Shown: one piece after another, positions 17,483 through 30,766 of the stretch | How positions within the stretch are numbered: position 1 is the stretch's first letter | How the letters are laid out: each line of letters opens with the position of its first letter | Notes under the pieces: model-generated | What the model was told of the DNA's origin: nothing | The model's database searches: none | Seen by the model: the letters and a program-made list of their open reading frames with translations, nothing else | Program-made: the position numbers and the translations under genes | NCBI GenBank assembly: GCA_025999275.1 | Contig: AP024680.1 | Coordinates: 492,522-556,521 of the forward strand | Origin: Patescibacteria group bacterium | Lineage (GTDB): Bacteria; Patescibacteriota; Microgenomatia; UBA8517 | DNA: 64,000 bases | Reading direction: 5' to 3'

Positions 17483-17556
17483 GACCGCTTAGCTCAGTTG
17501 GTTAGAGCGCATCGTTCACATCGATGAGGTCGTAGGTTCGAGTCCTACAGCGGTCA
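17483..17556 (+). tRNA. tRNA-Val (anticodon CAC)
   Basis: Hand-folded cloverleaf. Acceptor GACCGCT/AGCGGTC (7 bp), D-arm GCTC..GAGC, anticodon stem CATCG/CGATG with loop TTCACAT, T-arm GTAGG-TTCGAGT-CCTAC, discriminator A. CCA is not encoded. Confidence 0.85.
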
Positions 17557-17565
17557 CTATTTTAT

Positions 17566-18243
17566 ATGAATAAAAAAAGCCGCATTTTTTGGTTTGTTTA
17601 CATCTTTTTTATTTTGTTTTTTTCTTTTAGTGTTTTTAAAAACGTCTTCTTTCAATTCTCTTTGACTAAACAGATTAACTCTTTTCTTTTTATTTCAAAT
17701 TTATTACAGAGACTTAGCGGGTCTGTTGCTCTTTTTCTTCTCTTTGTGCAAATAATATTTGGTGCTTATAGACCTAAACTTTCAAAATTGCTTGGCAATT
17801 GGGTGATGAATTTCCATATTTGGCAGGGAAGGGTAATTTATGTTTTGGTTTTGATTCACACATTTTCTTTACTTTTGTTTAATTTTATTTCAAAAAAGGG
17901 TTTTGACCCATTTTATGTTTTTGTTGATTTTTGTGTTTTATGTCAGACAAGAAAGGAATTGTTTTATTCTTTTGGCAGATTTGGTTTTTGGTTGTTGAAT
18001 TTAGCAATTCTTTCGGCTTTGGTGAGGAAAGATAATTGGTGGAGGCAAAACTGGCGATATTTCCACATCTTAAACTATTTTCTTTTTTTCTTAATTTCTC
18101 TTCACGCTTTCTTTATCGGTTCTGATTTTTCTTTGAGAGTTGGATATTTAGGAAAGTTGAATCTATTTTTTTCTATATTTGTTATTTCAGTCATTTTGGT
18201 TAGATTTTTTAATTGGTTTTTAAAGAATTTTAAACTGTCGTAG
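17566..18243 (+). CDS. Six-TM membrane protein with ferric-reductase-like (MsrQ/YedZ-type) bis-His heme b motifs
   Basis: Six predicted TM helices. His pairs 'FHIWQGRVIYVLVLIHTF' (H-x13-H) in TM3 and 'FHILNYFLFFLISLHAF' (H-x12-H) in TM5 match the FRD-domain heme-ligand layout. The start is 10 nt after tRNA-Val. Confidence 0.4.
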   Translation: MNKKSRIFWFVYIFFILFFSFSVFKNVFFQFSLTKQINSFLFISNLLQRLSGSVALFLLFVQIIFGAYRPKLSKLLGNWVMNFHIWQGRVIYVLVLIHTFSLLLFNFISKKGFDPFYVFVDFCVLCQTRKELFYSFGRFGFWLLNLAILSALVRKDNWWRQNWRYFHILNYFLFFLISLHAFFIGSDFSLRVGYLGKLNLFFSIFVISVILVRFFNWFLKNFKLS

Positions 18244-18314
18244 TACTATAAATCTTCTAGATTAGAAAATGTTTAGAGGTGCAGTTCTTTGAAGTAATTT
18301 TAATACCTCAATTA

Positions 18315-18551
18315 TCAGGGAATGCAGGTATAGTTGGGAAAACAATCAGGTTCACATTCTGTTTCAGGGTAACATTCTGGTCGACAAGATGGATTGCAGT
18401 TGGGATAACACAGAGGTGGCCAGCAATCTTCGTCTTCTGTTTCGCAACGTGGTGGCCAGCATCCGGGGCCACAATGGGGTTTACAATCATGCTCTTTTGT
18501 ATTTCTTGTTGTTACTAATTCTATTGTAGGTATTTGCTTTTGTTCTACCAT
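18315..18551 (-). CDS. Cys/Pro-rich RiPP precursor-like peptide (78 aa: 22-aa leader plus 12-Cys core)
   Basis: Translation from the ATG at 18551: MVEQKQIPTIELVTTRNTKEHD-CKPHCGPGCWPPRCETEDEDCWPPLCYPNCNPSCRPECYPETECEPDCFPNYTCIP. It lies 41 nt downstream of the rSAM/SPASM gene on the same strand and has no signal peptide. The ORF track merges it into a longer ORF (18315..18740) that overlaps the rSAM gene. The internal Met is the plausible start, but there is no obvious SD. Confidence 0.55.
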   Translation of the reverse strand: MVEQKQIPTIELVTTRNTKEHDCKPHCGPGCWPPRCETEDEDCWPPLCYPNCNPSCRPECYPETECEPDCFPNYTCIP

Positions 18552-18592
18552 CTTAAACTGTAAATAAATTTTAACTCTAGTTTGGTAAAAGT

Positions 18593-19876
18593 TCAACTTT
18601 CTATAGGAAAATATTCTGGTTCTCCTTTTTCGTTTTCTTTCCAAAGCCCTTTTCCCCATTCTCCTGTATATGGATTGTAAGTACATCTTGAGTAGGGGGC
18701 TAGGTAATTTCCAGAATTTCCAACAGATACCGGTCGGCAATCATTGCAGGCATAACGATATTCGCAATCTCTACATACAGGTATTTTATCTTTAGTTATT
18801 CTCCACACCTCTTGGGTTTCTTCTGATTCAGCAATTTCTTTTAGTGATTTTTCTTTAATATTTCCTAAAGCTCTTCTTCTATAGAAAACACAGGGTATTA
18901 CTTTACCATCGGGACAAATTGATAGTTTTCCAGCAAGGCAATTGTGCCAATACATATTTCTACGAAAAGATTTTTCGCTAGTTGAAAAATCTGGTCTCAT
19001 AAAAAGAGATATTTGTTTCCTTAGTTCCATGCTGGGAATTAGTCCAGAATTTTCTGAAGTATTGTCTGGTCTTATAATGTCTGGCATTCTTGTTAACATT
19101 CCTTCTTTTTTAAGCCATCTTATTAATTCTGATAATGTGTCTTCATTTTGTTTCATAGCTATTACAGCTATTCTTACTGGCACTTTGTTTCTTCTAAGAA
19201 TTTCTATAGCTTTCATTGTTTTTTCAAAACTTCCTTTTTTTTGAGTTATTGATTCATGAGTTTTAGGGTCGAGAGAATATAGGGAAAGGGCGACAGAAAC
19301 TTTGAGATCTCTTAATATTTGAATCTTTTTTTCATCTAGTAATGTGGCGTTGGTAAAGTATTCTATTTTTTCAATTCCTACTTTTCTCATTAGTTCAAGT
19401 AGATCGTATGAATTATTACCTTCTTCTCTGTATAGATCTGGTTCTCCACCTATGATAGTAGCTGCTTTTATGCTATTTTCCCCTAATTGCATGATGATAT
19501 TTCCCCAATCTTTGAAGGTTAGGCGATCTTCATTTCTAATAGTTGCAGGTCCGAATTTGCCGTAGCAATGAATACATCTTAAGTTGCATTTTTCTGTGAG
19601 TTCTAACCATACAAATGACAATTTAACTTCTGGTGGTATTTTTTCTTGCTCTTCTAGAGATTCTTTTGTTTTGACTGCTAAACCTAAATTAAATAGAGTT
19701 TCCCAGAAATCTTCGTTATAACTTCTTTTTGTAATTACTTCTATAGCAAGTGGATTTATAGAGTATACATTACCTTTTTCAAGGTCGTATAAAGCTCCTC
19801 GTAAAGCTCCCTCGACTAGTTTTACACTTGGGCGTAGATGCCAACTTGGAGATTCTGAACTTATTTCTTTAGACAT
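18593..19876 (-). CDS. Radical SAM/SPASM-domain peptide maturase with N-terminal PqqD-like RRE
   Basis: CX3CX2C motif 'CNLRCIHC'. C-terminal SPASM-type Cys cluster 'C..SICPDGKVIPC ... CRDCEYRYACNDC' (7 Cys, room for two auxiliary Fe-S clusters). The N-terminal ~90 aa ('GALYDLEKGNVYSINPLAIEVI') resemble a PqqD/RiPP recognition element. Confidence 0.85.
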   Translation of the reverse strand: MSKEISSESPSWHLRPSVKLVEGALRGALYDLEKGNVYSINPLAIEVITKRSYNEDFWETLFNLGLAVKTKESLEEQEKIPPEVKLSFVWLELTEKCNLRCIHCYGKFGPATIRNEDRLTFKDWGNIIMQLGENSIKAATIIGGEPDLYREEGNNSYDLLELMRKVGIEKIEYFTNATLLDEKKIQILRDLKVSVALSLYSLDPKTHESITQKKGSFEKTMKAIEILRRNKVPVRIAVIAMKQNEDTLSELIRWLKKEGMLTRMPDIIRPDNTSENSGLIPSMELRKQISLFMRPDFSTSEKSFRRNMYWHNCLAGKLSICPDGKVIPCVFYRRRALGNIKEKSLKEIAESEETQEVWRITKDKIPVCRDCEYRYACNDCRPVSVGNSGNYLAPYSRCTYNPYTGEWGKGLWKENEKGEPEYFPIES

Positions 19877-19949
19877 TTTAATAGGACAGATTATAATAGT
19901 ATTATACCTTATTTTTGGTTATTTTTCTATTTTTAATGTCTTTAATTAT

Positions 19950-21971
19950 TTAATTATCATCAAAATTAATTTCTTTTATTATGGGTAATTTGCCTTTGAT
20001 TTTATATTCTTTCCAAGAATAATCTCCGTTTTTTAGGAATTGGCCCACCAGGAGTGTTGATTCGCTGGAGAGTGGCAATATTCCTATTTTGTATTTTCCT
20101 GATTTTGGGTTTAGATAAGCTGCTACATTATTTTTGTCTTTTTTGATTTTGCCTTTTGTATCAATTGTCAAAAATGTGGCAGGGTGGGCAATTATTACTA
20201 ATGCAGAGTTTGGTTCTTCATTTGCTGTTGAAGTTAATCCTGTAGTATTAGCTTCTCCTTTTAGAAAATTTATAATTGTTTGGATTCCTTCTTGGGAGTA
20301 GACCAATCCACCGTGGTTTTGATTTATTTCAAAGTTTTGTGCCCCATCAACTTTAGCGCTTTTTGAAAGTACAGTCCCATCTCCCTGATACGTGGTTTCT
20401 TTTCCTGCTGGTTTTCCTTCTTCCCAAATTCCCTCCTTTTTCTCTTTTTTGTTTGGTTCTTTGACTTTAATATTTTCTAATGTTTCAAACCCATTGCCTG
20501 AAAGAGTGGCAATTATAGTGTTGGTTTGGGAAGGAAAATTGCTTTCAAGAAGCCATTTGTTTGTATCTACTCCTTTTAGTTGTCCGTTTCTGTCTCTTAA
20601 GAAAGTGTATGTAGGGAGTAAATCCTGAAAAGAAGGTGCGATGCTTCTTAAAGTTTCCATGTCATTTTTATGATTTATCCCACAGCGTTTAATCAAGAGT
20701 GTGGCAGCAATTTTTGTTACCAAACTGTTATTCCAAATTTGACCGCCATACCAAGCAGGGTAGGCAAGAGCTGTGCCTTGATGAGGTGATCCGGCTGAGA
20801 TGTATTTATAAATTTTATTATCGTTATTGTTTTCAATATAAGCCCTTCCAACCAGTCCTCCCATGCTATGTCCGACGAAATTGATTTTCTCATTTTCTAG
20901 TAGTTGCAGGTTGTTGAGGAGATTATCAATTTCTTGATTGTGGGAGGGTATATTTTTTCTCCAGTCATAGTAGAAAGGATAAACAGTAAAGCCGTTATCT
21001 TGAAGTGACGAGATTAAAGGTTGGTAAATATCTTCTGCAAAAGGTGCCATAGTCCAATTACCAGAATAGTTATCCAATTTGCAGTTTAAAATTGCATCTG
21101 TGTTCCAGCTCGCTCCCATTCCCGGTGCGAGAATGACTTTGGTTGGAGGAGGTGTTGGTGTAGGAGTAGGTGTGAGAGTGGGGGTAGGGATGGGGGTAGA
21201 AGTGGTGGTTGGTGTGGGAGTTTCAGTTTTTATTTTTTGGACTAGGACATTGTCAAATGTAGTAGTGTTAGGGGTTTGAGGCCACACCAAAAGTCCTACA
21301 GCTCCTTCATAGAAAGGAGTGTTTGTTGAAGTTTTCTTATCAATGTAATCTATTAGAAGGTTATTATCAACGTATACTTTAATTGATACATCCTCTGTTA
21401 TGTTTAAGACCTCAATCCGTATGTTGTAGTAGACATTTGGATAATTCTCAATTTTAGATGTTGCTAGGATTGACCCATAGTTGCTTTTTAGATCTGGTGA
21501 TTTGAACAAAACTATATCATTCCCATCTGAGGTGGCGTAATGGCTTCTTAGGTCTACTTCATAAGCTGATCTTGTTTCCTTATTAAAATAGAAGAAAATT
21601 GTTTTGTCTACATTGTCTATTCCTTTTATTTTTACTGAGAAGCTGTAGTTTTTCCAACTGCTGTCTCCATTGTATGTATAGGAGTTTCTCCTTGTATTTC
21701 CACTTGGGGAAGCTGTTCCTACATATTCGCCATTATCTACATACCAATCTCCATTAAATATTTCCTCAGTCCAATCATTTGAATTACCATCATTAAAATC
21801 GTCATAGAGTAATATACTGCTTTCTCCGTGTATACTGTTTGTGGGGTTAAAAAGAGGGAGAATCACGGTTGCAATTAGTATGAAGAGGATGGGTTTTAAT
21901 AAGGTAATTATATTTTTGTTACAGGATTTTGTTCTTTTCGGTGGGTGAGAAATACCAGAAGTTGTTATCAT
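19950..21971 (-). CDS. Secreted/membrane-anchored multidomain LCAT-like alpha/beta-hydrolase (lipase/phospholipase family) with N-terminal concanavalin-like (DUF1080-type) domain
   Basis: N-terminal hydrophobic anchor, then a jelly-roll domain ('SILLYDDFNDGNSNDWTEEIFNGDWYVDNGEYVG', 'YEVDL'). This is followed by a Thr/Pro linker 'TPTPTTTSTPIPTPTLTPTPTPTPPPT'. The hydrolase domain has 'ILAPGMGAS', the LCAT-family 'YDWR' motif and the nucleophile elbow 'GHSMGG'. Confidence 0.6.
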   Translation of the reverse strand: MITTSGISHPPKRTKSCNKNIITLLKPILFILIATVILPLFNPTNSIHGESSILLYDDFNDGNSNDWTEEIFNGDWYVDNGEYVGTASPSGNTRRNSYTYNGDSSWKNYSFSVKIKGIDNVDKTIFFYFNKETRSAYEVDLRSHYATSDGNDIVLFKSPDLKSNYGSILATSKIENYPNVYYNIRIEVLNITEDVSIKVYVDNNLLIDYIDKKTSTNTPFYEGAVGLLVWPQTPNTTTFDNVLVQKIKTETPTPTTTSTPIPTPTLTPTPTPTPPPTKVILAPGMGASWNTDAILNCKLDNYSGNWTMAPFAEDIYQPLISSLQDNGFTVYPFYYDWRKNIPSHNQEIDNLLNNLQLLENEKINFVGHSMGGLVGRAYIENNNDNKIYKYISAGSPHQGTALAYPAWYGGQIWNNSLVTKIAATLLIKRCGINHKNDMETLRSIAPSFQDLLPTYTFLRDRNGQLKGVDTNKWLLESNFPSQTNTIIATLSGNGFETLENIKVKEPNKKEKKEGIWEEGKPAGKETTYQGDGTVLSKSAKVDGAQNFEINQNHGGLVYSQEGIQTIINFLKGEANTTGLTSTANEEPNSALVIIAHPATFLTIDTKGKIKKDKNNVAAYLNPKSGKYKIGILPLSSESTLLVGQFLKNGDYSWKEYKIKGKLPIIKEINFDDN
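21127..21237 (-). repeat. Imperfect 6-nt (ACN-CCN) tandem repeat encoding the Thr/Pro linker
   Basis: The plus strand shows reiterated GGTGTN/GGGGTN units ('ggtgttggtgtaggagtaggtgtgagagtgggggtagggatgggggtag...'). This is a coding microsatellite-like tract inside the lipase gene. Confidence 0.5.
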
Positions 21972-22043
21972 TTGATTGAAATTAAGTATAATTTAATAAT
22001 AAAACTACAATATTATTATTTGTCAATAGTCATTACTAGGTAA

Positions 22044-23069
22044 ATGAAAGTTTTGATGATAACTAAATATTTTTTTCCTCACGTCGGAGGGGTGGAAAGA
22101 CATGTCCAAATGGTTTGTGATGAGCTGAGCAGACGAGGAATAAAATTTACTGTTTTGACAGAAAAGTTTAGTAAAGATTTGAAATCAATTGATATTCAAG
22201 ATAAGGTGAAAGTAGTTCGTTTTAATTATCCGCCGGTGAAGTTTGTTGGTATTATTTATATCTGGTTGTGGTTAATAAAGAATTCATACTTGATTAAGGA
22301 GACCGATTTAGTTCATATACATGATGTTTTTATTTGGTATTTACCATTGAGATTTTTGTTCCCCCGAAAGCCTGTTTATATAACCTTCCATGGTTATCCG
22401 TCCTTTCCGTTGAGCAGGAAAGCCGTTTTCTATCAGAGAATAGCTGAGAGACTTACTAAGGGCAATATTTGTGTTGGAGATTTTATTGGAAAGTGGTTTG
22501 GGACAACCCCAACCATAGTTACTTATGGGGGTATTGATATAAGGAAATCTTTGGATAGTAAATTTACTCTTAATAGTTCTAAGATTGCTTTTGTTGGTCG
22601 GCTAAGTAAGCAAGTTGGGACATTAGTTTTTAAGAGAATGGTTGATATCTTAAAAGAAAGAAAGATAAGTCTTGAAGCTGTGGCTGTGGGAGATGGAGAT
22701 CTCAGGAATGAGCTGACAAATGATGGAATAAAATGCAGAGGTTTTGTCTCAGACCCTTACCCTTTTATTAGGAGATCAACATTTGTTTTTGCAACTGGCT
22801 ATTTGTCAATATTGGAAGCTTTTTCTTGTAGAAAATTGGTTTTTGTTGCTTTCGAAGACCCTCTTAGAGAAGATTATCTTAAGATGACGCCGTTTTCTAA
22901 GTGGATGGTTATTAGTAATGATCCTGAAGAATTAGCTGATAAGGTTGAATATTATATTAAGAACCCCAAAAAAGCTCAGAAAAAAATTGATGCCGCCTAC
23001 AGGTGGGTTAAAAAACAGACTTGGAGCAAAATGGCTGACAATTACGAAAAACTTTGGGGTTTAAGGTAG
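22044..23069 (+). CDS. Glycosyltransferase family 4 (GT-B) protein
   Basis: 'MKVLMITKYFFPHVGGVERHV' is the typical GT4 N-terminus. The C-terminal half has a GT-B donor-binding region. Confidence 0.65.
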   Translation: MKVLMITKYFFPHVGGVERHVQMVCDELSRRGIKFTVLTEKFSKDLKSIDIQDKVKVVRFNYPPVKFVGIIYIWLWLIKNSYLIKETDLVHIHDVFIWYLPLRFLFPRKPVYITFHGYPSFPLSRKAVFYQRIAERLTKGNICVGDFIGKWFGTTPTIVTYGGIDIRKSLDSKFTLNSSKIAFVGRLSKQVGTLVFKRMVDILKERKISLEAVAVGDGDLRNELTNDGIKCRGFVSDPYPFIRRSTFVFATGYLSILEAFSCRKLVFVAFEDPLREDYLKMTPFSKWMVISNDPEELADKVEYYIKNPKKAQKKIDAAYRWVKKQTWSKMADNYEKLWGLR

Positions 23070-23348
23070 AATTCCTTTTCTTTGTAAATCTTCTGTTCTC
23101 TTAAAGGCTTCAAGGAGTCGGAGGATAGCTTGACCTTTGTTTTCACCAAAGGTTCTAATTGTAGTAGCGCCATGGGTATTTGTAATTTCTATGGAAATTT
23201 CTATTGCTTTCGCTTTTGATAAAGGGCCAATTATTTGTATTCCTATGCCCTCGTCGGTTTTGACCTGATAGCCAAAATAATCTCCTTTTTCTTCATTTTC
23301 TACTCTATTTGGTTGTTCGACGCTCATTTGCCTGAGAATTTTAGCCAT
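23061..23348 (-). CDS. Hypothetical 95-aa protein
   Basis: Non-repetitive, protein-like composition. Convergent with the GT4 gene (9-nt overlap). No recognisable motif and no clear SD. Confidence 0.3.
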   Translation of the reverse strand: MAKILRQMSVEQPNRVENEEKGDYFGYQVKTDEGIGIQIIGPLSKAKAIEISIEITNTHGATTIRTFGENKGQAILRLLEAFKRTEDLQRKGILP

Positions 23349-23437
23349 TTTATTTTGATATTTTAATATTGTTTAACAAAATCTGATCTGTATTCTTGGT
23401 TTTATATTTTTTGTTTTTGGTGTTAGTATTCTCTTAA

Positions 23438-24427
23438 ATGAAGGTTTCAGTTTGTATTACTGTTTTTAATGAAGAAAAAACTATTAGTCGGCTTTTGCAC
23501 GCACTTCTTGATCAAACTAAAAAGCCTGATGAGATAGTTATTGTTGATGGTGGTTCAACTGATAAAACAATTGAAATAATAAAGCACTTTCAGAAAAAAG
23601 ATGCGACTATTAAACTTTTGGTTGAAAAATGTTCTATCGCCAAAGGCAGAAATCTTGCTATTAGTCTTTCAAGAAATGAAATAGTTGCTTTAACTGATGC
23701 AGGTTGTGAGCCTTATTTAGATTGGCTTGAGAAGCTAGTTTATTTCTTTAAACATAAAGAGGTTGGAATAGCAGCTGGTTTTTATGATATGAGAACCACG
23801 AATCCCTTGAATAAAGTAATTTCCTGTTATCTTGGAGTTGTTGAGGAAAGATTTGATCCGACATCATTTTTGCCTTCAACCAGAAGTGTTGCTTTAAGAA
23901 AAAGTGTTTGGGAGGAGTTGTGTGGATTTGACGAGAGTCTTGAAAGTACTGGTGAGGACACTTTATTTTTTGCCAGAGCTGTGAAACAAGGCGTGAAAAT
24001 TGTTAGAGTGAAAGAGGCTAGGGTAGTGTGGTGGGAGATTGGAGAAATGAATCTTAGAACTTTCTTTAAAAAAGTTTTTAGTTATGCAAAAGGTGATGTA
24101 AAAACAGGAATTTGGCTCCATCCTTCCAAAGGCTTAATGTCGCACAATATAAAAGCAGTTTCCGTTTTTCTTCGTTATTTCTTATTCTTATTTTTGGCTT
24201 TTAAACTTTTTCAATCTTTCAGTTCTTACTTTTGGGTGATTTTTGTATTCTTTTTGTATCTTATTTGGCCAATTTACAAGTGGCGTGATGTTTTAAAAGA
24301 GAGAAAAGAAAGAATATTTTTACCCTTGGTTCAGGCGGTTTCTGATTTTGGTATTATGGGAGGTTTCTTGGCAGGTATTTGGGAAGGTTTGTTTTCTATC
24401 TTTAAGATATCTTTTAAGATAAAATAG
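23438..24427 (+). CDS. GT2 polyprenyl-phosphate glycosyltransferase (GtrB/DPM-synthase-like) with C-terminal TM helices
   Basis: 'VCITVFNEEKTISRLLHALLDQTKKPDEIVIVDGGSTDKT' is a GT2 N-terminal fold. 'DAGCE' and an 'ED'-containing segment, with two or more C-terminal hydrophobic helices as in GtrB/ArnC. Confidence 0.65.
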   Translation: MKVSVCITVFNEEKTISRLLHALLDQTKKPDEIVIVDGGSTDKTIEIIKHFQKKDATIKLLVEKCSIAKGRNLAISLSRNEIVALTDAGCEPYLDWLEKLVYFFKHKEVGIAAGFYDMRTTNPLNKVISCYLGVVEERFDPTSFLPSTRSVALRKSVWEELCGFDESLESTGEDTLFFARAVKQGVKIVRVKEARVVWWEIGEMNLRTFFKKVFSYAKGDVKTGIWLHPSKGLMSHNIKAVSVFLRYFLFLFLAFKLFQSFSSYFWVIFVFFLYLIWPIYKWRDVLKERKERIFLPLVQAVSDFGIMGGFLAGIWEGLFSIFKISFKIK

Positions 24428-24431
24428 CTTT

Positions 24432-25649
24432 ATGGGTTATTTGAAAGATGCTATTCGCGGTATTGGTTGGATGGCATTGTTGCGCGCTTTTACTAGAGGT
24501 CTTGCTTTTGTAAGACTTGCAATTTTGGCAAGGCTACTTGATCCTTTTCAGTTTGGAATTTATGGTATTGCTTCTTTGATTCTTGCACTTCTTGAAATTT
24601 TTACAGAAACTGGGGTGAACATAGTTCTTGTTCAATCAAAATCAAAAATAACTGATTATTTAAATACAGCTTGGGTAGTCTCTATAGCAAGAGGAGTAGC
24701 CATTTCTATTTTGATGTTAATTTTTTCCTATCCAGTTTCTATTTTTTTTAAAAACCCACAATCTTTAGGGATTATATTATTTTTGAGTATAGTTCCGTTC
24801 TTAAGAGGTTTTATAAATCCAATGATAGTTAATTTTCAGAAAGAATTGGAGTTTAAAAAAGAATTCGTTTTTAGGTCAGTAATCTTTTTATTTGATGCTT
24901 TTGTTGCTATTGCTTTTGGTTTTATAACAAGGTCGGCTTACAGTCTTGCTTTTGGTTTGATGGCTGGAGCATTGCTTGAAATTTTCCTTTCTTTTTATTT
25001 GGTTAAGCCTACCCCCTCGTTTAAATTTGAGAAGGAAAAACTATTGTATGTTATAAGAAATGGTAAATGGATGACTTTTGCTGGTATTTTTGATTATTTT
25101 TTTAGAAACGGTGATGATATGGTGGTTGGCAGGATTCTGGGTGCTTCTTCATTGGGTTTGTATCAAGTTGCTTACAAGATCTCAACTCTTCCTGTTTCGG
25201 AAACAGGTCAGGTGTTTAATAAGGTCACTTTTCCTCTTTTTACTAAGATATCTAAGGATAAAAAGCTTCTTAAATCAACCTTTTGGAAGTCTTTATTTGC
25301 TGTTTCTGTTTTTGTTTTACCTTTTGGTTTAGTGCTTTTTTTGTTTGCCCATATACTTGTGCCACTAGCTTTGGGGGCAAAATGGGTTGAAATTATACCT
25401 GTCGTTCGTATCCTTGCTCTATTTGGAATAGCAAGTTCTCTACAAGGACCATTTTATTCTCTTTTTCTTGGGGTTGGTAGACAAAATTATGTTACTTACG
25501 CTTCTTTCTTGGGATTTCTAATTATGATCTTATCTATTGTTCCTTTGGTTGTGAGGTTTGGAATTGTTGGAGCGGCAGTCTCTGCTCTTTTGGGAAGTTT
25601 GGTTTCTTTTCCGCTTGTGATTTACTATTTTTCTAAAATTATAAAATGA
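24432..25649 (+). CDS. Wzx-type oligosaccharide flippase (MOP superfamily polysaccharide biosynthesis protein)
   Basis: 405 aa with about 12 TM segments. Composition and spacing are typical of PST/Wzx family members, and it sits inside the glycosyltransferase cluster. Confidence 0.5.
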   Translation: MGYLKDAIRGIGWMALLRAFTRGLAFVRLAILARLLDPFQFGIYGIASLILALLEIFTETGVNIVLVQSKSKITDYLNTAWVVSIARGVAISILMLIFSYPVSIFFKNPQSLGIILFLSIVPFLRGFINPMIVNFQKELEFKKEFVFRSVIFLFDAFVAIAFGFITRSAYSLAFGLMAGALLEIFLSFYLVKPTPSFKFEKEKLLYVIRNGKWMTFAGIFDYFFRNGDDMVVGRILGASSLGLYQVAYKISTLPVSETGQVFNKVTFPLFTKISKDKKLLKSTFWKSLFAVSVFVLPFGLVLFLFAHILVPLALGAKWVEIIPVVRILALFGIASSLQGPFYSLFLGVGRQNYVTYASFLGFLIMILSIVPLVVRFGIVGAAVSALLGSLVSFPLVIYYFSKIIK

Positions 25650-26404
25650 TGGATTTTGATGAAAGAGTTATTCCAGGTATAACTGCCAATTTTCAATTTA
25701 AAGAATCTTTAGCCCGTTATGAATTTGCTTCGAAGATTTTAAAGGGTGGTTCTTATGTTCTTGATCTTGGTTGTGGAACAGGATATGGCAGTGATTTTTT
25801 ATCAAGAAAATTTAATGTGATAGGAATTGACATTAATAAGGAAGCTATATCTTTTGCTAAGAAACATTATCCCAATTCTGCTAGATTTCTTGTTGGTGAT
25901 GTTTGTCGACTGCCTTTTGAAAGGGAAGAGTTTGATGCTATTTGTTCTTTTGAAGTTATTGAGCATATCAAAAATCCTAAAGATATGCTTTCTGAGGTTC
26001 TAAGAGTTTTAAAGAAGAGGGGATTGTTTGTTATGTCAACACCAAAAAAGGGAAAGAAAGTTATTAGTCCTTATCATTTTAAGGAGTATACCAAGGTTGA
26101 GCTTGAAAATCTTTTGAGACTTTATTTTAGTAAAGTGGAAATATTTGGGCAGTGTAAAAACAAAAAGGCTAAAAAAGCTTTTCTTGATTTCTTAAAGTCT
26201 CAACAGGCAAGGGAAAAGGTTGTAAGAAATGATGTTTTGGGTTTAAGGAGACTGTTCCCCAAGATTTTAAAAGAAAAAATCTGGAAGTATGTGGGCAACT
26301 TTTTTGGTAGAAGAAGCCAGGAATCTCTTGAAACTTCAGATTTTCCAATTGGAGCTTTTCGCCAAGAAGAGTCTGAATTTTTGATTGCAGTATGCCAGAA
26401 ATAA
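25646..26404 (+). CDS. Class I SAM-dependent methyltransferase
   Basis: Motif I 'VLDLGCGTGYGS' and motif II 'FDAICSFEVIEH'. Confidence 0.7.
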   Translation: MMDFDERVIPGITANFQFKESLARYEFASKILKGGSYVLDLGCGTGYGSDFLSRKFNVIGIDINKEAISFAKKHYPNSARFLVGDVCRLPFEREEFDAICSFEVIEHIKNPKDMLSEVLRVLKKRGLFVMSTPKKGKKVISPYHFKEYTKVELENLLRLYFSKVEIFGQCKNKKAKKAFLDFLKSQQAREKVVRNDVLGLRRLFPKILKEKIWKYVGNFFGRRSQESLETSDFPIGAFRQEESEFLIAVCQK

Positions 26405-27276
26405 AAGTTTCGATAATTATAGTTTATTATGACGGCACGGAGTCTCTTTTTAATTGTCTTAATTCAATTAAAAAGTATCCTCCCAGTTTTCCTTATGAAG
26501 TTATTGTTGTTGATAATAATGAAAAGAAGGTTATTGAAAGGGAGCTTAAGAAAGATTTTGGATGGGTAAAGTATATCAAATCTCCGAAGAATTTGGGCTA
26601 TGGAGCCGGTAATAACTTAGGGGTTAAATATTCAAGAGGCGAATATATTTTAATCTTGAATCCGGACACTAAGGTCAAAAAGGGTTCAATTGATAAATTA
26701 ATTGATTTTCTTGATAGAAATAAAGACGTTGGTGTAGTTGCTCCAAATTTAATTGACGATAAAGGCAGGGTTTTTCAACAACTTGGTTCAAGGGAGCTAA
26801 CTCCAATTAGAGGTGTTTTTGCGCTTTCTTTTTTGAATAAGATTTTTCCCAATAACCCAATTTCTAGAGGTTATTATCTTTATGATGTGCCGATGGATCA
26901 AAAAAGAGAGGCTGATGTTGTTCCCGGCTCTGCCTTTTTGATAAGAAGAAGTGTTTTTCAAGAAGTAGGTGGTTTTGATGAAAACATTTTTCTTTTTTTT
27001 GAAGAAAGTGATTTGGGCAGAAGAATAAGAAAAGCAGGGTATAAATTATTCATAATTCCTGATTCTGAAATTTTTCATTTTTGGAAGGGTAAGGGGGATG
27101 GTTCTGATAAATTAAAAAGAATCTTTAGGGAGAGCAGATTTTATTATTTTAAGAAGCATTTTGGTATATTTTCTGCTGTTTTGGTTGAAATTTTTGCCAG
27201 ATTTTCAAAGAGGATTTTTATTTTTATGATCATTTTCGTATTTTTTATTTTTGTTTTATATAATTTGTTAAGATAA
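26392..27276 (+). CDS. GT2 glycosyltransferase with C-terminal TM segment
   Basis: 'VSIIIVYYDGTESLFNCLNSI' and 'VIVVDNNEKK' form a GT2 Rossmann region. It has a DxD-like 'NPDT' and a hydrophobic C-terminus. Confidence 0.65.
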   Translation: MPEIKVSIIIVYYDGTESLFNCLNSIKKYPPSFPYEVIVVDNNEKKVIERELKKDFGWVKYIKSPKNLGYGAGNNLGVKYSRGEYILILNPDTKVKKGSIDKLIDFLDRNKDVGVVAPNLIDDKGRVFQQLGSRELTPIRGVFALSFLNKIFPNNPISRGYYLYDVPMDQKREADVVPGSAFLIRRSVFQEVGGFDENIFLFFEESDLGRRIRKAGYKLFIIPDSEIFHFWKGKGDGSDKLKRIFRESRFYYFKKHFGIFSAVLVEIFARFSKRIFIFMIIFVFFIFVLYNLLR

Positions 27277-27278
27277 TC

Positions 27279-28040
27279 ATGATTACAGCTGTGGTCTTGA
27301 CTAAAAATGAGGAAAAAAGTATTAAAGATTGCCTTAAAAGTCTTTCTTTTTGCGACGAGATAATTTTGGTTGATGATTATTCTACTGATAAAACTATTCA
27401 AATAGCATCTTTGTCTGGAGCAGTTGTTTTAAGAAGGAATTTAAATAATGATTTTTCTTCCCAAAGAAATTTTGGGCTTGATAAGGCAAATGGCCCTTGG
27501 GTTTTGTTTGTTGACGCTGATGAGAGGATTCCTGAGAATTTGAAGCTTGAGATTATAAGTAAGATAAATGATCCGGTTAATAAAAATGTTGGCTATTTTA
27601 TTAAAAGAAGAACTTTTTTTCTTGGCAAAGAGCTAAAATTTGGACAAATATCGCAGGATAAAGTTTTAAGATTAGCGAAGAAAGATGCTGGTCGATGGAA
27701 GAGAAAAGTTCATGAGTTTTGGGACATAAAAGGTAGAGTTGATAATTTAAGAAACCCGCTTGATCATTTTACCTGTAATAGTTTGGATGATTTTGTCCAC
27801 AAAATTAATGTTTATTCTGATATTCACGCAGAATCATTACTCGAAGAAAAAAAATACTCAAATCTTTTTAAGATTATTTTTTATCCGCCTTTTAAGTTTT
27901 TTGATAATTTTATTTTGAAGAGAGGATTTTTAGATGGAGTTTATGGCTTGGTTTTTGCTCTTCTGGCTAGTTTTCATTCGTTTTTAGGTTGGAGTAAATT
28001 ATGGCTTTTACAAAGAAATACAAAATTGAAGAAATATTAG
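27279..28040 (+). CDS. GT2 glycosyltransferase
   Basis: 'ITAVVLTKNEEKSIKDCLKSL' and 'IILVDDYSTDKT' form a GT2 fold, and 'VDADERIP' contains a DxD. Confidence 0.65.
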   Translation: MITAVVLTKNEEKSIKDCLKSLSFCDEIILVDDYSTDKTIQIASLSGAVVLRRNLNNDFSSQRNFGLDKANGPWVLFVDADERIPENLKLEIISKINDPVNKNVGYFIKRRTFFLGKELKFGQISQDKVLRLAKKDAGRWKRKVHEFWDIKGRVDNLRNPLDHFTCNSLDDFVHKINVYSDIHAESLLEEKKYSNLFKIIFYPPFKFFDNFILKRGFLDGVYGLVFALLASFHSFLGWSKLWLLQRNTKLKKY

Positions 28041-29200
28041 TTTTTGCCTTTTTGGCCGCTTTTCCTTTTGGTAGGCTTTTGGCTTTCGAATTTTCTTTAT
28101 TTGGCTTTCGCGTGTCTTTTGTTTTTCTTGACTTTATTGCATTTTTGGGTTCTCTTTTGTTTATTTATTTAAATCGAAATAGGCTTAAATTTTTAGACTC
28201 TAACTTCTTAACTTTTGTCTTTCCTTTTTTGTTTTCTTTTTTGTTTTCAATATTTATCTTTAGAGATATCAGAATTTTATTTGGTACTTTTTACTTAGTA
28301 AGAATTTTTTCTTATTTGGGCTTTTATTTTTTTATTAAGGATTTTTTAAAGAGCTCGAAAGACAATAAAAAATTATTGGAGAATAGTTTATTTTTAATAC
28401 TTTTATTTTCTTTATTATTTGGCTTTTTTCAATATTTTTTTTATCCCGACTTAACCTCACTTAAATTTTTGGGGTGGGATGATCATCTTTATCGTATGAC
28501 TGGAAGTTTTCTTGACCCTGGCTTTACCGGAATTATCTTTGTTTTTGGTTTTATATTTTCTTGGGCGAAATTTAGAAGCAATAAATCTAAGAAGTTTTTA
28601 TTTTTTTCTTTGTTGTTTTTAATTGGTATTTCTTTAACCTTTTCTAGGGCGAGTTATTTATCTTTGGTTGTTTCTTTTTTCTATTTTTCTTATCTTAAGA
28701 AGGAGAAGTGGCTTTATGGAGTTTTGTTTGTGGTTATTCTTTTGTTGCTTTTATTATTTATTCCAAAACCTGCTGGAGAAGGTGTTAATTTGGCTCGTCT
28801 TTATAGTGTTTTTGATAGAATAGAAAACTACAGGGAGACATATTTAATTTTTTCCCAATCCCCGATTTTTGGAGTTGGTTTTAATAATCTTTGCCTTGCC
28901 AAAAATATTTATTTTGGAAACGATAATTTTCAGTCGCATAGTTGTGGTGGTTCTGATTCTTCTTTGCTTTTTGTGGTTTCAACCTTGGGAGTTGTTGGTT
29001 TTATGATTTTGATACATCTGGGGCTTGAAATTTGGAGGAAAATAAAAAAGGATGGTTTTGGGATGGTGTTGAGATCTTTTATTATTGCTCTTTTTTTACA
29101 TAGTCAGTTTAATAACAGCTTGTTTTATCCATGGATATTGGCAATTTTGGTGATTGCTTTTGTCTTGGAGTTTAATTCTACTTCCAAAATTGAACCGTAA
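28001..29200 (+). CDS. Wzy_C/O-antigen-ligase-like polytopic membrane protein (candidate O-oligosaccharyltransferase or polymerase)
   Basis: About 10-12 TM segments with a central loop 'LTFSRASYLSLVV' like the Wzy_C (WaaL/PglL/Wzy) signature region. It is the last gene of the GT cluster. Confidence 0.55.
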   Translation: MAFTKKYKIEEILVFAFLAAFPFGRLLAFEFSLFGFRVSFVFLDFIAFLGSLLFIYLNRNRLKFLDSNFLTFVFPFLFSFLFSIFIFRDIRILFGTFYLVRIFSYLGFYFFIKDFLKSSKDNKKLLENSLFLILLFSLLFGFFQYFFYPDLTSLKFLGWDDHLYRMTGSFLDPGFTGIIFVFGFIFSWAKFRSNKSKKFLFFSLLFLIGISLTFSRASYLSLVVSFFYFSYLKKEKWLYGVLFVVILLLLLLFIPKPAGEGVNLARLYSVFDRIENYRETYLIFSQSPIFGVGFNNLCLAKNIYFGNDNFQSHSCGGSDSSLLFVVSTLGVVGFMILIHLGLEIWRKIKKDGFGMVLRSFIIALFLHSQFNNSLFYPWILAILVIAFVLEFNSTSKIEP

Positions 29201-29894
29201 GCCGTTCGATTTTTTTGTTTCCGGCTTTATCTTCAGCGACGATTTCAAAGTCATTATTTCCTTCCTGAAGTGTGACTGCGTAAGTAAAGCTGCCGTCGTT
29301 TTCGATTATAACTATTCTATCGTTTATTTTAAGAGTATCAGCATCTTTTACTTTTCCCTGGATTACTATCTGTCTTTGTTTTGAACCGTAAAATGATGCT
29401 CCATCCTGAGGGGAATAAATAGTTATTTCTGGTGGTTCGTTATCATAATTTATTGTATACGTTGATGTTGGCTGGCTTTCGTTGCCAGAGTTATCTTTTG
29501 CGATAAATGAGATTTTATTTTCGCCGTTTTTGAGAGAAAAAGTGTAAGTAAATAACCCATCTTTTCCTGAAACAATTTCCTCTGTTTGTGAATTGGCTTG
29601 GACAATGATAGTAATTCCAGGTTCAGTTGTTCCCTTTATTTCTATTTTGGGCTGATTAGTGTATTCTGTTGGAACTTGAATATTGGGGACTGCTGGGGGA
29701 ATGGTATCTTGTTTTTCTATTGGTTTTGTACCTTTTCTTAATTCTGAGACAAAAGAAGCAGTTTTTACTATTAATGGAATTCCTAGAAAAATAAAGACGG
29801 CAATGGCGACAATGGTCAAAAAGATGTAAAGACTAGCCTTTCTGATATTTCTTTTTTCTTGAGTTATTATCCTTCTTGAATAAAAGTTGTTCAT
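29178..29894 (-). CDS. Membrane-anchored surface protein with two Ig-like/beta-sandwich domains
   Basis: Starts at Met 'MNNFYSRR' and has a TM anchor 'LYIFLTIVAIAVFIFLGIPLIV'. Two beta-sandwich modules follow (e.g. 'PPEITIYSPQDGASF...DGSFTYAVTLQEGNNDFEIVAEDKAGN'), with Ser/Thr-rich segments. The track ORF extends to 29960, but that extension reads through the tRNA-Thr gene. Confidence 0.5.
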   Translation of the reverse strand: MNNFYSRRIITQEKRNIRKASLYIFLTIVAIAVFIFLGIPLIVKTASFVSELRKGTKPIEKQDTIPPAVPNIQVPTEYTNQPKIEIKGTTEPGITIIVQANSQTEEIVSGKDGLFTYTFSLKNGENKISFIAKDNSGNESQPTSTYTINYDNEPPEITIYSPQDGASFYGSKQRQIVIQGKVKDADTLKINDRIVIIENDGSFTYAVTLQEGNNDFEIVAEDKAGNKKIERLTVQFWK

Positions 29895-29902
29895 AATTTG
29901 AG

Positions 29903-29974
29903 AGCCGATGAGAGGAGTTGAACCTCTAACCTCTCCCTTACGAAGGGATTGCTCTGCCATTGAGCTACATCGGC
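29903..29974 (-). tRNA. tRNA-Thr (anticodon CGT)
   Basis: Hand-folded on the minus strand. Acceptor GCCGATG/CATCGGC, D-arm GCTC-AATGGCA-GAGC, anticodon arm ATCCC-TTCGTAA-GGGAG (one A.G mismatch at 27-43), T-arm AGAGG-TTCAACT-CCTCT. Confidence 0.8.
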
Positions 29975-30013
29975 ATCTTCTTTATTATATCATTTTGGTC
30001 TTTTTTGCTTTAA

Positions 30014-30727: not shown

Positions 30728-30766
30728 GTCTAGATGATATCATAATATAAAGGGGGTGATTAATAA

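Follow-up and report, generated by a model that had tools for sequence, protein, structure and literature searches.

On balance, we consider it likely that the open reading frame at 19950..21971 on the minus strand of the window (the whole 64,000-nt stretch of DNA analysed) encodes an exported, modular lipolytic serine hydrolase, and its catalytic domain is a distant LCAT-like relative set in a different architecture. The ORF list, an exact-sequence look-up and the homologues showed that the gene is complete: the frame runs uninterrupted for 673 aa from an ATG start, with the stop codon included in the coordinates, and its product is identical to the deposited protein BCX14840.1, annotated as 'hypothetical protein KatS3mg088_523 [Patescibacteria group bacterium]', from a Patescibacteria MAG with a 785,860-bp contig. 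A word-indexed search returned 260 homologues (top E=1.9e-288) and 1,278 cluster representatives at 50% identity matched the hydrolase at E<=1e-30, indicating that the frame is not a chance feature. The order of its parts is a Sec signal peptide, a DUF1080/CBM66-like jelly-roll, a Thr/Pro linker, the alpha/beta-hydrolase and a C-terminal beta-sandwich. The family is large and nearly limited to Microgenomates, with homologue loci in Woese-, Gottesman-, Shapiro- and Amesbacteria, and these loci, together with the Patescibacteria deposit, bore out the CPR origin suggested by an earlier, sequence-only reading of this DNA. Even if the lipid-scavenging role discussed below is wrong, a large 'hypothetical protein' family thereby gains a defined architecture.

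The catalytic domain (aa 278-575; 20247..21140, on the minus strand like all features of the protein given here) was delimited from AF2, Foldseek, hhalign and Pfam as an LCAT/LPLA2-like alpha/beta-hydrolase, which AF2 modelled as a minimal six-strand core with a helical cap; the model of the catalytic and C-terminal domains reached a pLDDT of 94.7 and a pTM of 0.93. The Ser/Asp/His triad, whose completeness the sequence-only reading had left to an alignment, is complete and invariant in 87 homologues at 33-72% identity. It consists of Ser369 (codon 20865-20867; invariant in 87/87 and 70/70) within the GHSMGG nucleophile elbow (aa 367-372; 20856..20873), aligned to LCAT Ser181; Asp531 (20379..20381) in a GDGTV motif, aligned to LCAT Asp345 in GDDTV; and His553 (20313..20315) in NQNHGG, aligned to LCAT His377. 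Equally invariant in the 87 homologues were P283-G284, Y335-D336, C297 (21081-21083) and C430 (20682-20684, inside the cap), and the invariance of triad and motif residues was repeated in 70 representatives of 50%-identity clusters. P283 and G284 open the PGMG oxyanion-loop motif (aa 283-286; 21114..21125), aligned to P-G-F103-G of LCAT, where F103 is an oxyanion-hole residue. Y335 and D336 open a YDWR motif (aa 335-338; 20958..20969) that aligned to the YDWR of human LCAT and whose W337 and R338 were kept in at least 90% of homologues. The two cysteines may form a disulfide, C297-C430, and presumably have no correspondence to the disulfide cysteines of LCAT.

Between beta6 and beta7 lies the helical cap insertion (aa 394-485; 20517..20792), for which DSSP on the AF2 models gave helices at 403-409, 417-433, 437-444, 446-451 and 472-476. 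In LCAT family enzymes the cap domain bears a mobile lid over the active site (PMC6277198), and the insertion matches the LCAT cap in topological position and approximately in length, with low confidence of the alignment columns. The position aligned by hhalign with LCAT Lys218, a proposed lipid-phosphate binder, is not conserved in the hydrolase family, which speaks against the lipolytic reading. The C-terminal beta-sandwich (aa 589-673; 19953..20207), recognised from AF2 and family conservation, is conserved across the family and had no Pfam match; its eight predicted strands show a defined packing on the catalytic domain in the two-domain AF2 model (pTM 0.93).

Comparison with LCAT yielded a significant family match, in line with the sequence-only reading, which had assigned the protein to the LCAT family. 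PF02450, the Pfam LCAT family, which takes in LCAT, LPLA2 and PDAT, scored 34.7 bits, above its gathering score of 21, with a match spanning model positions 68-189 of 392 only, and was the sole Pfam family to match all of 70 diverse members (70/70, best E=2.9e-14). In hhalign, the family profile aligned with human LCAT (sequence checked to be identical to 4xx1_A) with a probability of 94.3% and E=9.8e-8 over 256 columns covering LCAT residues 97-394, in a register that paired PGMG with PGFG, YDWR with YDWR, GHSMGG with GHSLGC (S181), GDGTV with GDDTV (D345) and H553 with H377. Among the 50 Foldseek matches listed, LPLA2 and LCAT (PLA2G15 and LCAT structures 4xx1, 5bv7, 6mvd and 4x90-4x97) occupied ranks 3-9 with the highest TM-scores, 0.46-0.51 on the query and 0.49-0.54 on the target over ~410 columns, values of only about 0.5; family I lipases came near them on the target (up to 0.53), and identity to solved lipases was 12-16%. 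The listed matches were lipases and phospholipases apart from a few lower-ranked esterases, KAI2-type receptor hydrolases and NDRG2, and included BlEst2, family I.1/I.2 lipases, the A. fulgidus lipase, Legionella PlaB and the T6SS effector Tle4.

The earlier assignment therefore stood as far as a relationship with LCAT is concerned, but not as full membership, because LCAT residues 1-96 have no counterpart; a further caveat is that another Pfam family scores higher. The hhalign alignment begins at LCAT 97, and no counterpart was found to the preceding residues including the membrane-binding domain, which in LCAT contains Y51 and G71 (PMC6277198); as the catalytic domain starts directly after the linker, at aa 278, there is no sequence for an equivalent of that domain. 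We accordingly name the hydrolase an LCAT-like relative. The higher-scoring family is Palm_thioest (42.2 bits; gathering score 26.8), the top Pfam score of the hydrolase, and PGAP1, DUF676 and DUF915 also scored above their gathering scores, with DUF7379 below its own; across the 70 members, Palm_thioest matched 64 and PGAP1 67. These scores would suit a palmitoyl-protein-thioesterase or PGAP1-type deacylase of lipidated surface proteins or glycolipid anchors, a function that we nevertheless regard as very improbable, given that the matches are limited to the nucleophile-elbow region (64/254 model positions for Palm_thioest and 49/233 for PGAP1), that PPT2 and PGAP1 reached only E=0.06-0.085 in the profile-to-PDB comparison (PPT2, E=0.064), and that PPT and PGAP1 are absent from the top 50 Foldseek matches. 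Membership of the palmitoyl-protein thioesterase family (PF02089) was rejected, with no full-domain match and no PPT fold match in the top 50.

At the N terminus, the signal peptide region (aa 1-48; 21828..21971) was defined from hydropathy, homologue N-termini and AF2. A K/R-rich n-region is followed by a hydrophobic core at aa 21-41, the top 19-residue Kyte-Doolittle window is 2.44 at aa 21, and AF2 placed a low-confidence helix at aa 20-41. An N-terminal hydrophobic segment was present in 165/201 full-length homologues, many of them with AxA directly before the first domain. Since these homologues show clear AxA sites at the same position, we read the segment as a cleavable Sec signal peptide, with cleavage probably after SIHG(48) to judge from the sequence. 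Of the 'membrane anchor/signal' proposed earlier, the export signal is thus upheld by the homologue N-termini, whereas a permanent anchor is not.

The jelly-roll module that follows (aa 52-246; 21234..21818) was identified with Pfam and Foldseek, as the sequence-only reading had anticipated: PF06439 (DUF1080/3keto-disac_hyd) matched aa 59-242 at 29.5 bits (gathering score 26.8), covering model positions 6-184 of 187, and the structural matches comprised CBM66 4b1l (TM on target 0.81, rmsd 2.8 A), DUF1080 3hbk and legume lectins. The sequence and the model suggest that it is probably a glycan-recognition module. It is the hypervariable part of the gene, and among 70 members Pfam distinguished GH130/GH32N-like propellers (15/70), Kelch/NanM (6/70) and SpaA_2 (6/70) at this place; with DUF1080/CBM66 included, the N-modules across the family are all glycan-type folds. 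The TP-rich linker noted earlier, which may be O-glycosylated, likewise held up in its composition and predicted disorder. This linker (aa 247-277, IKTETPTPTTTSTPIPTPTLTPTPTPTPPPT; 21141..21233), delimited by sequence composition, is 81% Thr+Pro, its core at aa 254-266 has a pLDDT <50 and is predicted by AF2 to be disordered, and 65/160 homologues have at least 50% T+P over the 40 aa preceding the catalytic domain.

Secreted polysaccharide degraders classically consist of a carbohydrate-binding module joined through a Thr/Pro linker to a catalytic domain, and N-modules that are CBM66/DUF1080-like or glycoside-hydrolase-like propellers (GH130, GH32N) would be in keeping with a nutritional, CBM-tethered esterase acting on acylated polysaccharides or polymeric esters, like CBM-linked acetyl-xylan or feruloyl esterases. 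We consider such an enzyme quite unlikely: the 50 Foldseek matches listed contained no cutinase, polyester depolymerase or described carbohydrate esterase, the catalytic domain has an LCAT-type YDWR as well as a large helical cap, and the gene belongs to the syntenic core of the clade, not to variable polysaccharide-utilisation loci.

The hydrolase locus is flanked by a surface-glycan gene cluster on one side and by a signal-peptidase/ParB block on the other, and its chromosomal position was fixed in 38/39 loci, the gene being a core gene of the clade. On the other side of a divergent promoter region begins the glycan cluster, whose first gene, identified from Pfam and synteny, encodes a GT4 glycosyltransferase (22044..23069, plus strand); up to ~29200 the cluster comprises GT4, GT2, a Wzx-type flippase, a methyltransferase, GT2, GT2 and Wzy_C. 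Comparison by blastn with strain L088 revealed a segment without a match (variable segment 1, 21225..22838) that takes in the N-module and signal peptide, the divergent promoter region and, in GT4, the initial ~265 codons. Its flanks are 97.1% and 99.1% identical to L088, the L088 DNA inside is non-homologous, and the GT4 of L088 is an 81-aa remnant. The window becomes homologous to L088 again at 21224, within the Thr/Pro linker, and from the linker on the hydrolase is ~98% identical to protein P0002, the N-modules of the two being unrelated. The linker is also the recombination breakpoint for replacement of the N-module. That such a swap occurs even between strains 97-99% identical suggests a recognition function that is diversifying rapidly, and the exchangeable front end gives a way into studying surface specificity, whether for host or for self.

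This neighbourhood could also indicate a role in envelope biogenesis, in which the N-module would bind the glycan of its own cluster and the hydrolase would remove or transfer acyl groups there or on a lipid-linked precursor, for instance by LCAT-style acyl transfer from a phospholipid to a sugar hydroxyl. The gene is divergent from a GT/flippase/methyltransferase/Wzy or PMT_2 cluster in 6/6 loci inspected, and homologues of the window's glycan cluster lie upstream in most of 39 loci (GT2 in 35/39, Wzy in 28/39). In locus pairs with catalytic domains 55-99.9% identical, homology of the N-module and of the first upstream gene was kept together in 26 and lost together in 18, with 4 discordant, and the tract replaced in the 97% identical strain takes in the N-module together with the 5' part of GT4. 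LCAT and LPLA2 are, moreover, natural transacylases (PMC6027918). However, the concordance in the locus pairs represents only about three independent replacement events, and physical adjacency alone, as one recombination tract, accounts for it. The downstream housekeeping block (S26, ParB, L27, L21, FtsW, IleRS) is equally conserved, at 38/39, so that the synteny may merely reflect conserved gene order, and the structural neighbours among the 50 Foldseek matches listed are nearly all lipid hydrolases. We accordingly judge an envelope-biogenesis role to be unlikely.

Downstream of the hydrolase, blastn revealed a second segment without a match in L088 (variable segment 2, 18223..19962), a strain-specific island that we treat as context outside the system. 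It carries an rSAM/SPASM maturase gene (18593-19876, minus strand; Pfam, NCBIfam) and an ORF for a 78-aa Cys-rich precursor candidate (18315-18551, minus strand). The sequence-only reading had placed the hydrolase directly upstream of the RiPP genes, and the adjacency itself is real: both genes lie on one strand, the rSAM gene starts 73 bp past the hydrolase stop codon, and the interval contains no terminator-like site. This arrangement might suggest that the hydrolase functions in the rSAM/RiPP cluster as a leader peptidase, a tailoring esterase or an export-linked factor. The rSAM and precursor genes, however, were found in 0/39 syntenic loci, in none of six annotated loci and not in L088, which is 97-99% identical, and the slot downstream of the hydrolase is filled by unrelated lineage-specific ORFs in other genomes. 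Homologues of the rSAM protein (40-45% identity) are common in Microgenomates, with none beside the hydrolase in the loci examined. A promoter-like TAGAAA-17-TATAAT between the two genes also speaks for separation, weakly, since sites of this kind occur in this AT-rich DNA no more often than expected by chance. Being strain-specific, the adjacency has no functional meaning, and the accessory-gene reading, to which we give next to no credence, is close to refuted. The apparent link between the hydrolase and a RiPP cluster is thereby removed even if the lipid-scavenging reading is wrong.

Returning to the lipolytic enzyme, we infer that its substrate is a lipid, that the N-module binds glycan and that the enzyme serves in the acquisition of fatty acids or lysolipids, and the mechanism that we propose would run as follows. 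The protein would be exported by Sec, with its signal peptide probably cleaved near residue 48, and the lectin-like jelly-roll would bind a glycan either of the cell's own wall or surface, retaining the enzyme on the cell, or of a neighbouring or host cell, while the extended Thr/Pro linker would give the catalytic unit reach to its substrate. Activated by His553 and Asp531, Ser369 would attack an acyl ester of a phospholipid, lysolipid or acylglycerol to form an acyl-enzyme, with the PGMG-loop and Met370 backbone stabilising the tetrahedral intermediate. Water would then release fatty acid and lysolipid, or an alcohol could act as acceptor, as in LCAT/LPLA2, and the helical cap and C-terminal beta-sandwich may shape or gate the acyl-binding site. 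A glycan-related substrate would also agree with the glycan-synthesis neighbourhood and with the joint replacement of the N-module and the first glycan gene.

Patescibacteria (CPR) are generally unable to synthesise lipids. We tentatively put forward, as one possibility, that the hydrolase is the missing extracellular lipid-acquisition enzyme of Microgenomates, a core, Sec-exported LCAT-like phospholipase/transacylase in which a lectin-type module would replace the membrane-binding domain and serve as a tether to the cell surface or host glycan. The module would be inherited and replaced jointly with the first genes in the bacterium's own surface-glycan locus, and acyl chains or lysolipids stripped from neighbours' membranes would be incorporated by a fatty-acid-auxotrophic bacterium. 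With its export signal, its intact triad and a chromosomal position shared by Woese-, Gottesman-, Shapiro- and Amesbacteria, the hydrolase is a concrete and easily expressed candidate for lipid acquisition in CPR.

Comparison with known systems placed the hydrolase beside several groups of enzymes. With CBM66 (B. subtilis SacC, 4b1l) and DUF1080, the PF06439 '3-keto-disaccharide hydrolase' domains, the N-module shares the jelly-roll fold, but identity is 21% and the module is here fused to a lipase-type domain and exchangeable with unrelated modules. Like lipases of families I.1/I.2 (P. aeruginosa LipA 1ex9, Burkholderia 1ys1/3lip, Proteus) and I.4 (Bacillus LipA), the hydrolase is secreted and has a minimal alpha/beta-hydrolase core without the first two strands and a GHS-x-GG elbow followed by G-(S/T)-PH-x-G-(S/T); its spacing of 22 residues from Asp to His is presumably the same in these families. 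In contrast to the hydrolase, however, those lipases have no YDWR, and their HG oxyanion dipeptide is replaced here by PG; their TM-scores on the query, 0.36-0.39, are lower than those of LPLA2/LCAT. Alignment by hhalign with the P. aeruginosa lipase (sequence checked to be identical to 1ex9_A) covered 74 columns only, from the elbow to the first cap helix, and profile-to-PDB matches of bacterial lipases were limited to about 46 residues. Membership of families I.1/I.2 was rejected, there being no homology over the whole catalytic domain. No foldase-like (Lif) or other conserved partner gene adjoined the hydrolase in 56 loci, where the downstream ORFs were lineage-specific singletons, Ferric_reduct or S26 peptidase.

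An alpha/beta-hydrolase followed by a beta-sandwich is also found in Bacillus licheniformis BlEst2 (6wpx/6wpy), T. tengcongensis EstA3 and the A. fulgidus lipase (2zyh), and BlEst2 6wpx gave the top Foldseek E-value, 6.9e-13. C-terminal sandwiches comparable to that of the hydrolase have been described in lipases, and in EstA3 the sandwich is required for C12-C16 substrates (PMC10816834). These enzymes nevertheless differ in having neither a lectin-like N-module nor YDWR, at 14% identity, and their global TM of 0.31-0.34 (rmsd ~16 A) indicates a different domain arrangement. With interbacterial phospholipase effectors such as the T6SS effector Tle4 (4r1d; TM on query 0.44) and Legionella PlaB (6zth), both among the Foldseek matches, the hydrolase shares a GxSxG alpha/beta-hydrolase, and these effectors target the membranes of other cells; a gene with a PF02450 domain lies in the variable region of a Pantoea T6SS gene cluster/island (PMC3942780). 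The hydrolase, in contrast, has no T6SS context and no conserved adjoining immunity gene, and would be exported by Sec and targeted through its lectin-like module.

LCAT and LPLA2 share with the hydrolase a collinear Ser-Asp-His triad, with 162 residues from Ser to Asp here and 164 (S181, D345) there, as well as YDWR, a (G/A)HS(M/L)G elbow, a PG-x-G oxyanion loop, a GD(G/D)TV Asp motif, a beta6-beta7 insertion of a size similar to the LCAT cap and an extracellular location, predicted here from the export signal. Identity is only 13-15%, however, and whereas the His of LCAT follows the Asp by 32 residues, that of the hydrolase follows by 22. Unlike these enzymes, the hydrolase belongs to a bacterial, CPR-restricted family, and compared with LCAT it additionally has a C-terminal beta-sandwich and a lectin-like N-module carried on a Thr/Pro linker.

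The hydrolase gene at 19950-21971 (-) was found in the ORF list as an uninterrupted ORF of 673 aa, and the exact protein is on deposit as BCX14840.1 ([quoted passage not shown]) from a 785,860-bp contig. An AlphaFold2 model of the full-length protein, built with 87 homologues, reached a mean pLDDT of 89, and aa 272-673 modelled alone reached a pLDDT of 94.7 and a pTM of 0.93. In the export signal (aa 1-48), an n-region rich in Lys and Arg precedes a hydrophobic core (aa 21-41); the sequence-only reading had taken this for a membrane anchor or signal. Homologues carry textbook Sec signal peptides with an AxA end directly before the first domain, a position at which the query reads SIHG/ESSILLYDDF; these AxA sites argue for a signal peptide, probably cleaved, and not for an anchor. 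The DUF1080-like jelly-roll named in that reading was recovered at aa 52-246, where PF06439 (DUF1080/3keto-disac_hyd) scored 29.5 bits (gathering score 26.8) and Foldseek superposed the domain on CBM66 4b1l (TM 0.81, rmsd 2.8 A), with further matches to DUF1080 3hbk and legume lectins. Thr and Pro make up 81% of the Thr/Pro linker (aa 247-277), and the AlphaFold2 model predicts disorder in its core stretch (aa 254-266). The linker leads into an alpha/beta-hydrolase domain (aa 278-575), whose core has six strands and which carries a helical cap (aa 394-485) and, before the catalytic Asp, an additional beta-hairpin; an eight-stranded beta-sandwich (aa 589-673) follows, for which a Pfam search returned no match.

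YDWR lies at aa 335-338 and GHSMGG at aa 367-372, and the overall sequence description proved accurate. To assess the catalytic residues, the query was aligned with 87 homologues that are 33-72% identical to it; S369, D531 and H553 proved invariant, together with P283-G284, W289-N290, C297, W306, Y335-D336 and C430. In 70 cluster representatives (50% identity), a set independent of the first, S369, D531, H553, Y335-D336, P283-G284, C297, W306 and C430 were again invariant. The triad, whose completeness the sequence-only reading had left to be checked, is therefore complete and under selection. Since one of the invariant cysteines C297 and C430 sits in the oxyanion-side loop and the other in a cap helix, their placement suggests a disulfide, which would fit an extracellular enzyme.

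Assignment to a hydrolase family required more than the elbow region, where the query gave partial Pfam matches to Palm_thioest (42.2 bits), LCAT (34.7 bits, gathering score 21, over positions 68-189 of the 392-position model), Abhydrolase_1, PGAP1, DUF7379, DUF676 and DUF915. Among 70 diverse members, LCAT was the sole family matched in all (70/70), with PGAP1 in 67/70 and Palm_thioest in 64/70. Assignments to Palm_thioest, PGAP1, DUF676, DUF915 and DUF7379 were rejected because their matches were confined to the elbow; these matches, and nothing else, point to a PPT/PGAP1-like deacylase, which we regard as very improbable. Two database names were likewise set aside as apparently generic or spurious: the JGI name "pimeloyl-ACP methyl ester carboxylesterase" and "Glycoside hydrolase family 48", the source name of one homologue (P0046). 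The protein itself is exported, multidomain and 673 aa long.

Single-sequence phmmer against the PDB gave only matches around the elbow (E~0.15-0.9), and a profile search was stronger, yet covered ~46-80 residues and did not tell the lipase families apart. By hhalign, the family profile aligned with human LCAT (identical in sequence to 4xx1_A) over 256 columns at a probability of 94.3% (E=9.8e-8), query aa 279-567 falling on LCAT 97-394. In this alignment PGMG lay on the LCAT PGFG loop, which holds the oxyanion residue F103, YDWR on YDWR, GHSMGG on GHSLGC (S181), GDGTV on GDDTV (D345) and H553 on H377, whereas P. aeruginosa lipase (identical to 1ex9_A) aligned over 74 columns only, between the elbow and the first cap helix. 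In Foldseek searches with the full-length model, lectin matches of the N-domain were dominant and masked LCAT. The search was rerun with a model of the catalytic and C-terminal domains, in which ranks 3-9 were LPLA2 (4x92, 4x90, 4x97, 4x95) and LCAT (4xx1, 5bv7, 6mvd), with the highest TM-scores of all: 0.46-0.51 (query) and 0.49-0.54 (target) across ~410 columns, against 0.36-0.39 on the query for family I.1/I.2 lipases. BlEst2 (6wpx) had the top E-value with a low TM, and A. fulgidus lipase, Legionella PlaB and the T6SS effector Tle4 were also matched. Because family-wide Pfam, hhalign and domain-only Foldseek separate the candidates, the catalytic domain appears, by profile and predicted fold, to be truly, if distantly, related to LCAT and LPLA2.

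A profile search with the family recovered 1,278 representatives of 50%-identity clusters at E≤1e-30, and tblastn confirmed at least 479 pattern-matched stretches in GTDB species genomes, the genes being fewer than these stretches since two search patterns may strike one gene. The 80 loci listed carried Woese-, Gottesman-, Shapiro- or Amesbacteria, Microgenomates or Patescibacteria labels, with two exceptions. Catalytic-domain homologues of ~30% identity on a Bathyarchaeia MAG contig (L071) and an Aminicenantes MAG contig (L072) could reflect horizontal transfer or mis-binning. Many loci (L009, L010, L014-L017, L020 and others) come from MAG records that carry this Microgenomates-type gene under the title "uncultured Gammaproteobacteria bacterium" (binchicken/TPA); where examined, they too showed the ParB-L27-FtsW synteny, and the names look like placeholders or mislabels. 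A literature search for an earlier account of the family in CPR found nothing specific.

The neighbours of the gene were alike in 6/6 annotated loci, and the window has the same order: on one side, divergently, a surface-glycan cluster of GT4/GT2, methyltransferases, Polysacc_synt flippase and Wzy_C or PMT_2, and on the other [Ferric_reduct]-[IMPDH]-S26 signal peptidase-ParB-L27-L21-FtsW-IleRS. When window proteins were searched by tblastn against 39 loci flanked on each side by 8 kb or more, S26, ParB and FtsW were found downstream in 38/39, and upstream GT2 in 35/39 and Wzy in 28/39. The hydrolase gene therefore belongs to the ancestral core of the clade and keeps a fixed position. The S26 signal peptidase I gene lies directly 3' on the same strand at ~100-160 bp in 20/56 loci (from L009-L087), and in other lineages the gap is filled by Ferric_reduct, IMPDH or unrelated small ORFs. 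Because its content varies by lineage, the slot 3' of the hydrolase acts as an insertion hot spot. Across these 56 loci, no conserved small ORF 3' of the hydrolase was found that might encode an immunity or foldase partner like those of the Tle/Tli and Lip/Lif pairs; singletons, Ferric_reduct or the S26 peptidase occupy the site.

Several further genes around the locus were recorded. A membrane ferric-reductase-like protein (PF01794; 17566-18243, +) adjoins it, the glycan cluster has an FAD/NAD-binding oxidoreductase module (PF00970/PF00175; 30014-30727, -) at its far end, and the two resemble separately encoded halves of a NOX/FRE-type electron-transfer system. Also at the cluster end is a probable further surface protein of 260 aa (29178-29960, -), which combines bacterial Ig-like (Big_6/Big_13) and Glucodextranase-B domains and is conserved in L001, L002 and L088. 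Between GT4 and GT2, in antisense orientation, is a 95-aa ORF (23061-23348, -) without a Pfam match; it was called as a gene at the matching site of L088 (7467-7754), and L003 has a 99-aa ORF in a similar place.

A link between the hydrolase and the adjacent RiPP genes, suggested from their position, did not survive comparison of loci, and a functional tie was rejected on that ground: the rSAM/SPASM gene and the Cys-rich ORF were present in 0/39 loci by tblastn, the island carrying them was absent from L088, the contig of a near-identical strain, and other genomes had unrelated lineage-specific ORFs in the slot. Homologues of the rSAM protein (40-45% identity) occur widely in Microgenomates and lay beside the hydrolase in no locus examined. 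The adjacency is incidental, and a role as a RiPP accessory enzyme is essentially refuted. In a promoter and terminator scan the site count did not exceed the shuffled expectation, and so did not argue for or against co-transcription with the rSAM gene. The first interpretation was largely right, three corrections being needed, on full LCAT family membership, on the membrane anchor and on the RiPP adjacency. The strain-specific island itself (18223-19962) encodes the rSAM/SPASM maturase BCX14839.1 (18593-19876, -), similar at its C-terminus to the grasp-with-spasm maturase TIGR04193 (97 bits, below cutoff). The precursor candidate (18315-18551, -) is a 78-aa ORF starting 42 bp downstream of the rSAM gene, with 12 Cys in its C-terminal ~57 residues in a repeated C-x3-C-type Pro-rich pattern (...CKPHCGPGCWPPRC...CWPPLCYPNCNPSCRPECYPETECEPDCFPNYTCIP); the ORF list gives it as a longer 141-aa TTG-start ORF overlapping the rSAM gene.

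L088 matched the window at 97.7% identity over 17529-18222 (Ferric_reduct), 97.1% over 19963-21224 (C-domain, catalytic domain and linker) and 99.1% over 22839-30814 (glycan cluster). Two intervals were non-homologous: 18223-19962, where L088 has 441 bp with a 130-aa ORF, and 21225-22838, which takes in the N-module and signal peptide of the hydrolase, the promoter region and GT4 (22044-23069, +) up to about codon 265. The L088 counterpart of the latter is 784 bp (7976-8759) with a different N-module, which showed no BLASTP or Pfam relation to that of the window and no Pfam match of its own, and GT4 is reduced to an 81-aa remnant, ~795 bp of its 5' end being lost. The hydrolase and its L088 equivalent (P0002) thus have unrelated N-modules, an identical linker (ETPTPTTTSTPIPTPTL...) and ~98% identity on to the C-terminus, and one breakpoint of the replacement lies inside the linker's coding repeat, which makes the low-complexity linker the recombination joint. 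This comparison provides a clean example of lectin-module cassette exchange.

Across 70 family members the N-modules included DUF1080 (10/70), GH130/GH32N-like propellers (15/70) and, more rarely, Kelch/NanM (6), SpaA_2 (6) and PQQ (1), all of them carbohydrate-recognition or adhesin-type folds. Such modules would suit a CBM-tethered carbohydrate esterase, a reading that the structural neighbours of the enzyme do not back and that we consider quite unlikely. Comparing locus pairs with catalytic domains 55-99.9% identical, we found that 26 kept homology of both N-module and first upstream gene, 18 lost both and 4 lost that of the N-module only (full tally 26/18/4/0), a strong concordance that rests on only ~3 independent events; between L065 and L066, for example, the N-module is LamG-like versus DUF1080 and the upstream gene GT1-type versus GT2. 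With so few events, and with physical adjacency as a confounder, we did not accept this covariation as proof of functional coupling. Co-loss may reflect single recombination tracts over adjacent DNA, and is still compatible with a lectin module that fits the glycan of its own cell. Another reading, an envelope-glycan acyl-transferase or esterase, draws support from the synteny and from the joint replacement of N-module and GT4, and we hold it to be unlikely.

The lipid substrate, glycan binding and physiological role proposed for the hydrolase would fit together as follows. After export via Sec and probable cleavage of the signal peptide, the N-module would bind glycan, either of the cell's own envelope for retention or of a foreign cell for targeting, and the extended linker would position the catalytic unit. 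Ser369, with His553 and Asp531, would form an acyl-enzyme from a lipid ester; water, or possibly an acceptor alcohol in the manner of LCAT and LPLA2, would then resolve this intermediate. Lipid acquisition fits what has been described for Patescibacteria, in which mechanisms of lipid uptake and breakdown are unidentified and lysolipids of neighbours are the suspected lipid source (PMC11665869). The hydrolase is a concrete, testable candidate for CPR lipid acquisition.

A G-(S/T)-PH-x-G motif is common to the hydrolase and family I lipases. Its Asp-to-His spacing of 22 residues equals that of family I lipases as well. LCAT residues 1-96 find no counterpart in the hydrolase, whose catalytic domain begins directly after the linker, and in LCAT these residues hold the membrane-binding domain, including Y51 and G71 (PMC6277198). 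Relative to LCAT, the C-terminal beta-sandwich is an addition; BlEst2, T. tengcongensis EstA3 and A. fulgidus lipase have one likewise, and in such lipases it inhibits the enzyme or aids binding of long-chain substrates (PMC10816834). The kinship with LCAT first proposed thus held, whereas full membership did not, because the counterpart of LCAT 1-96 is absent and a beta-sandwich is added. Since motif and spacing also match family I lipases, the hydrolase is filed as LCAT-like and not as an LCAT family member, its enzyme type being known and its architecture new.
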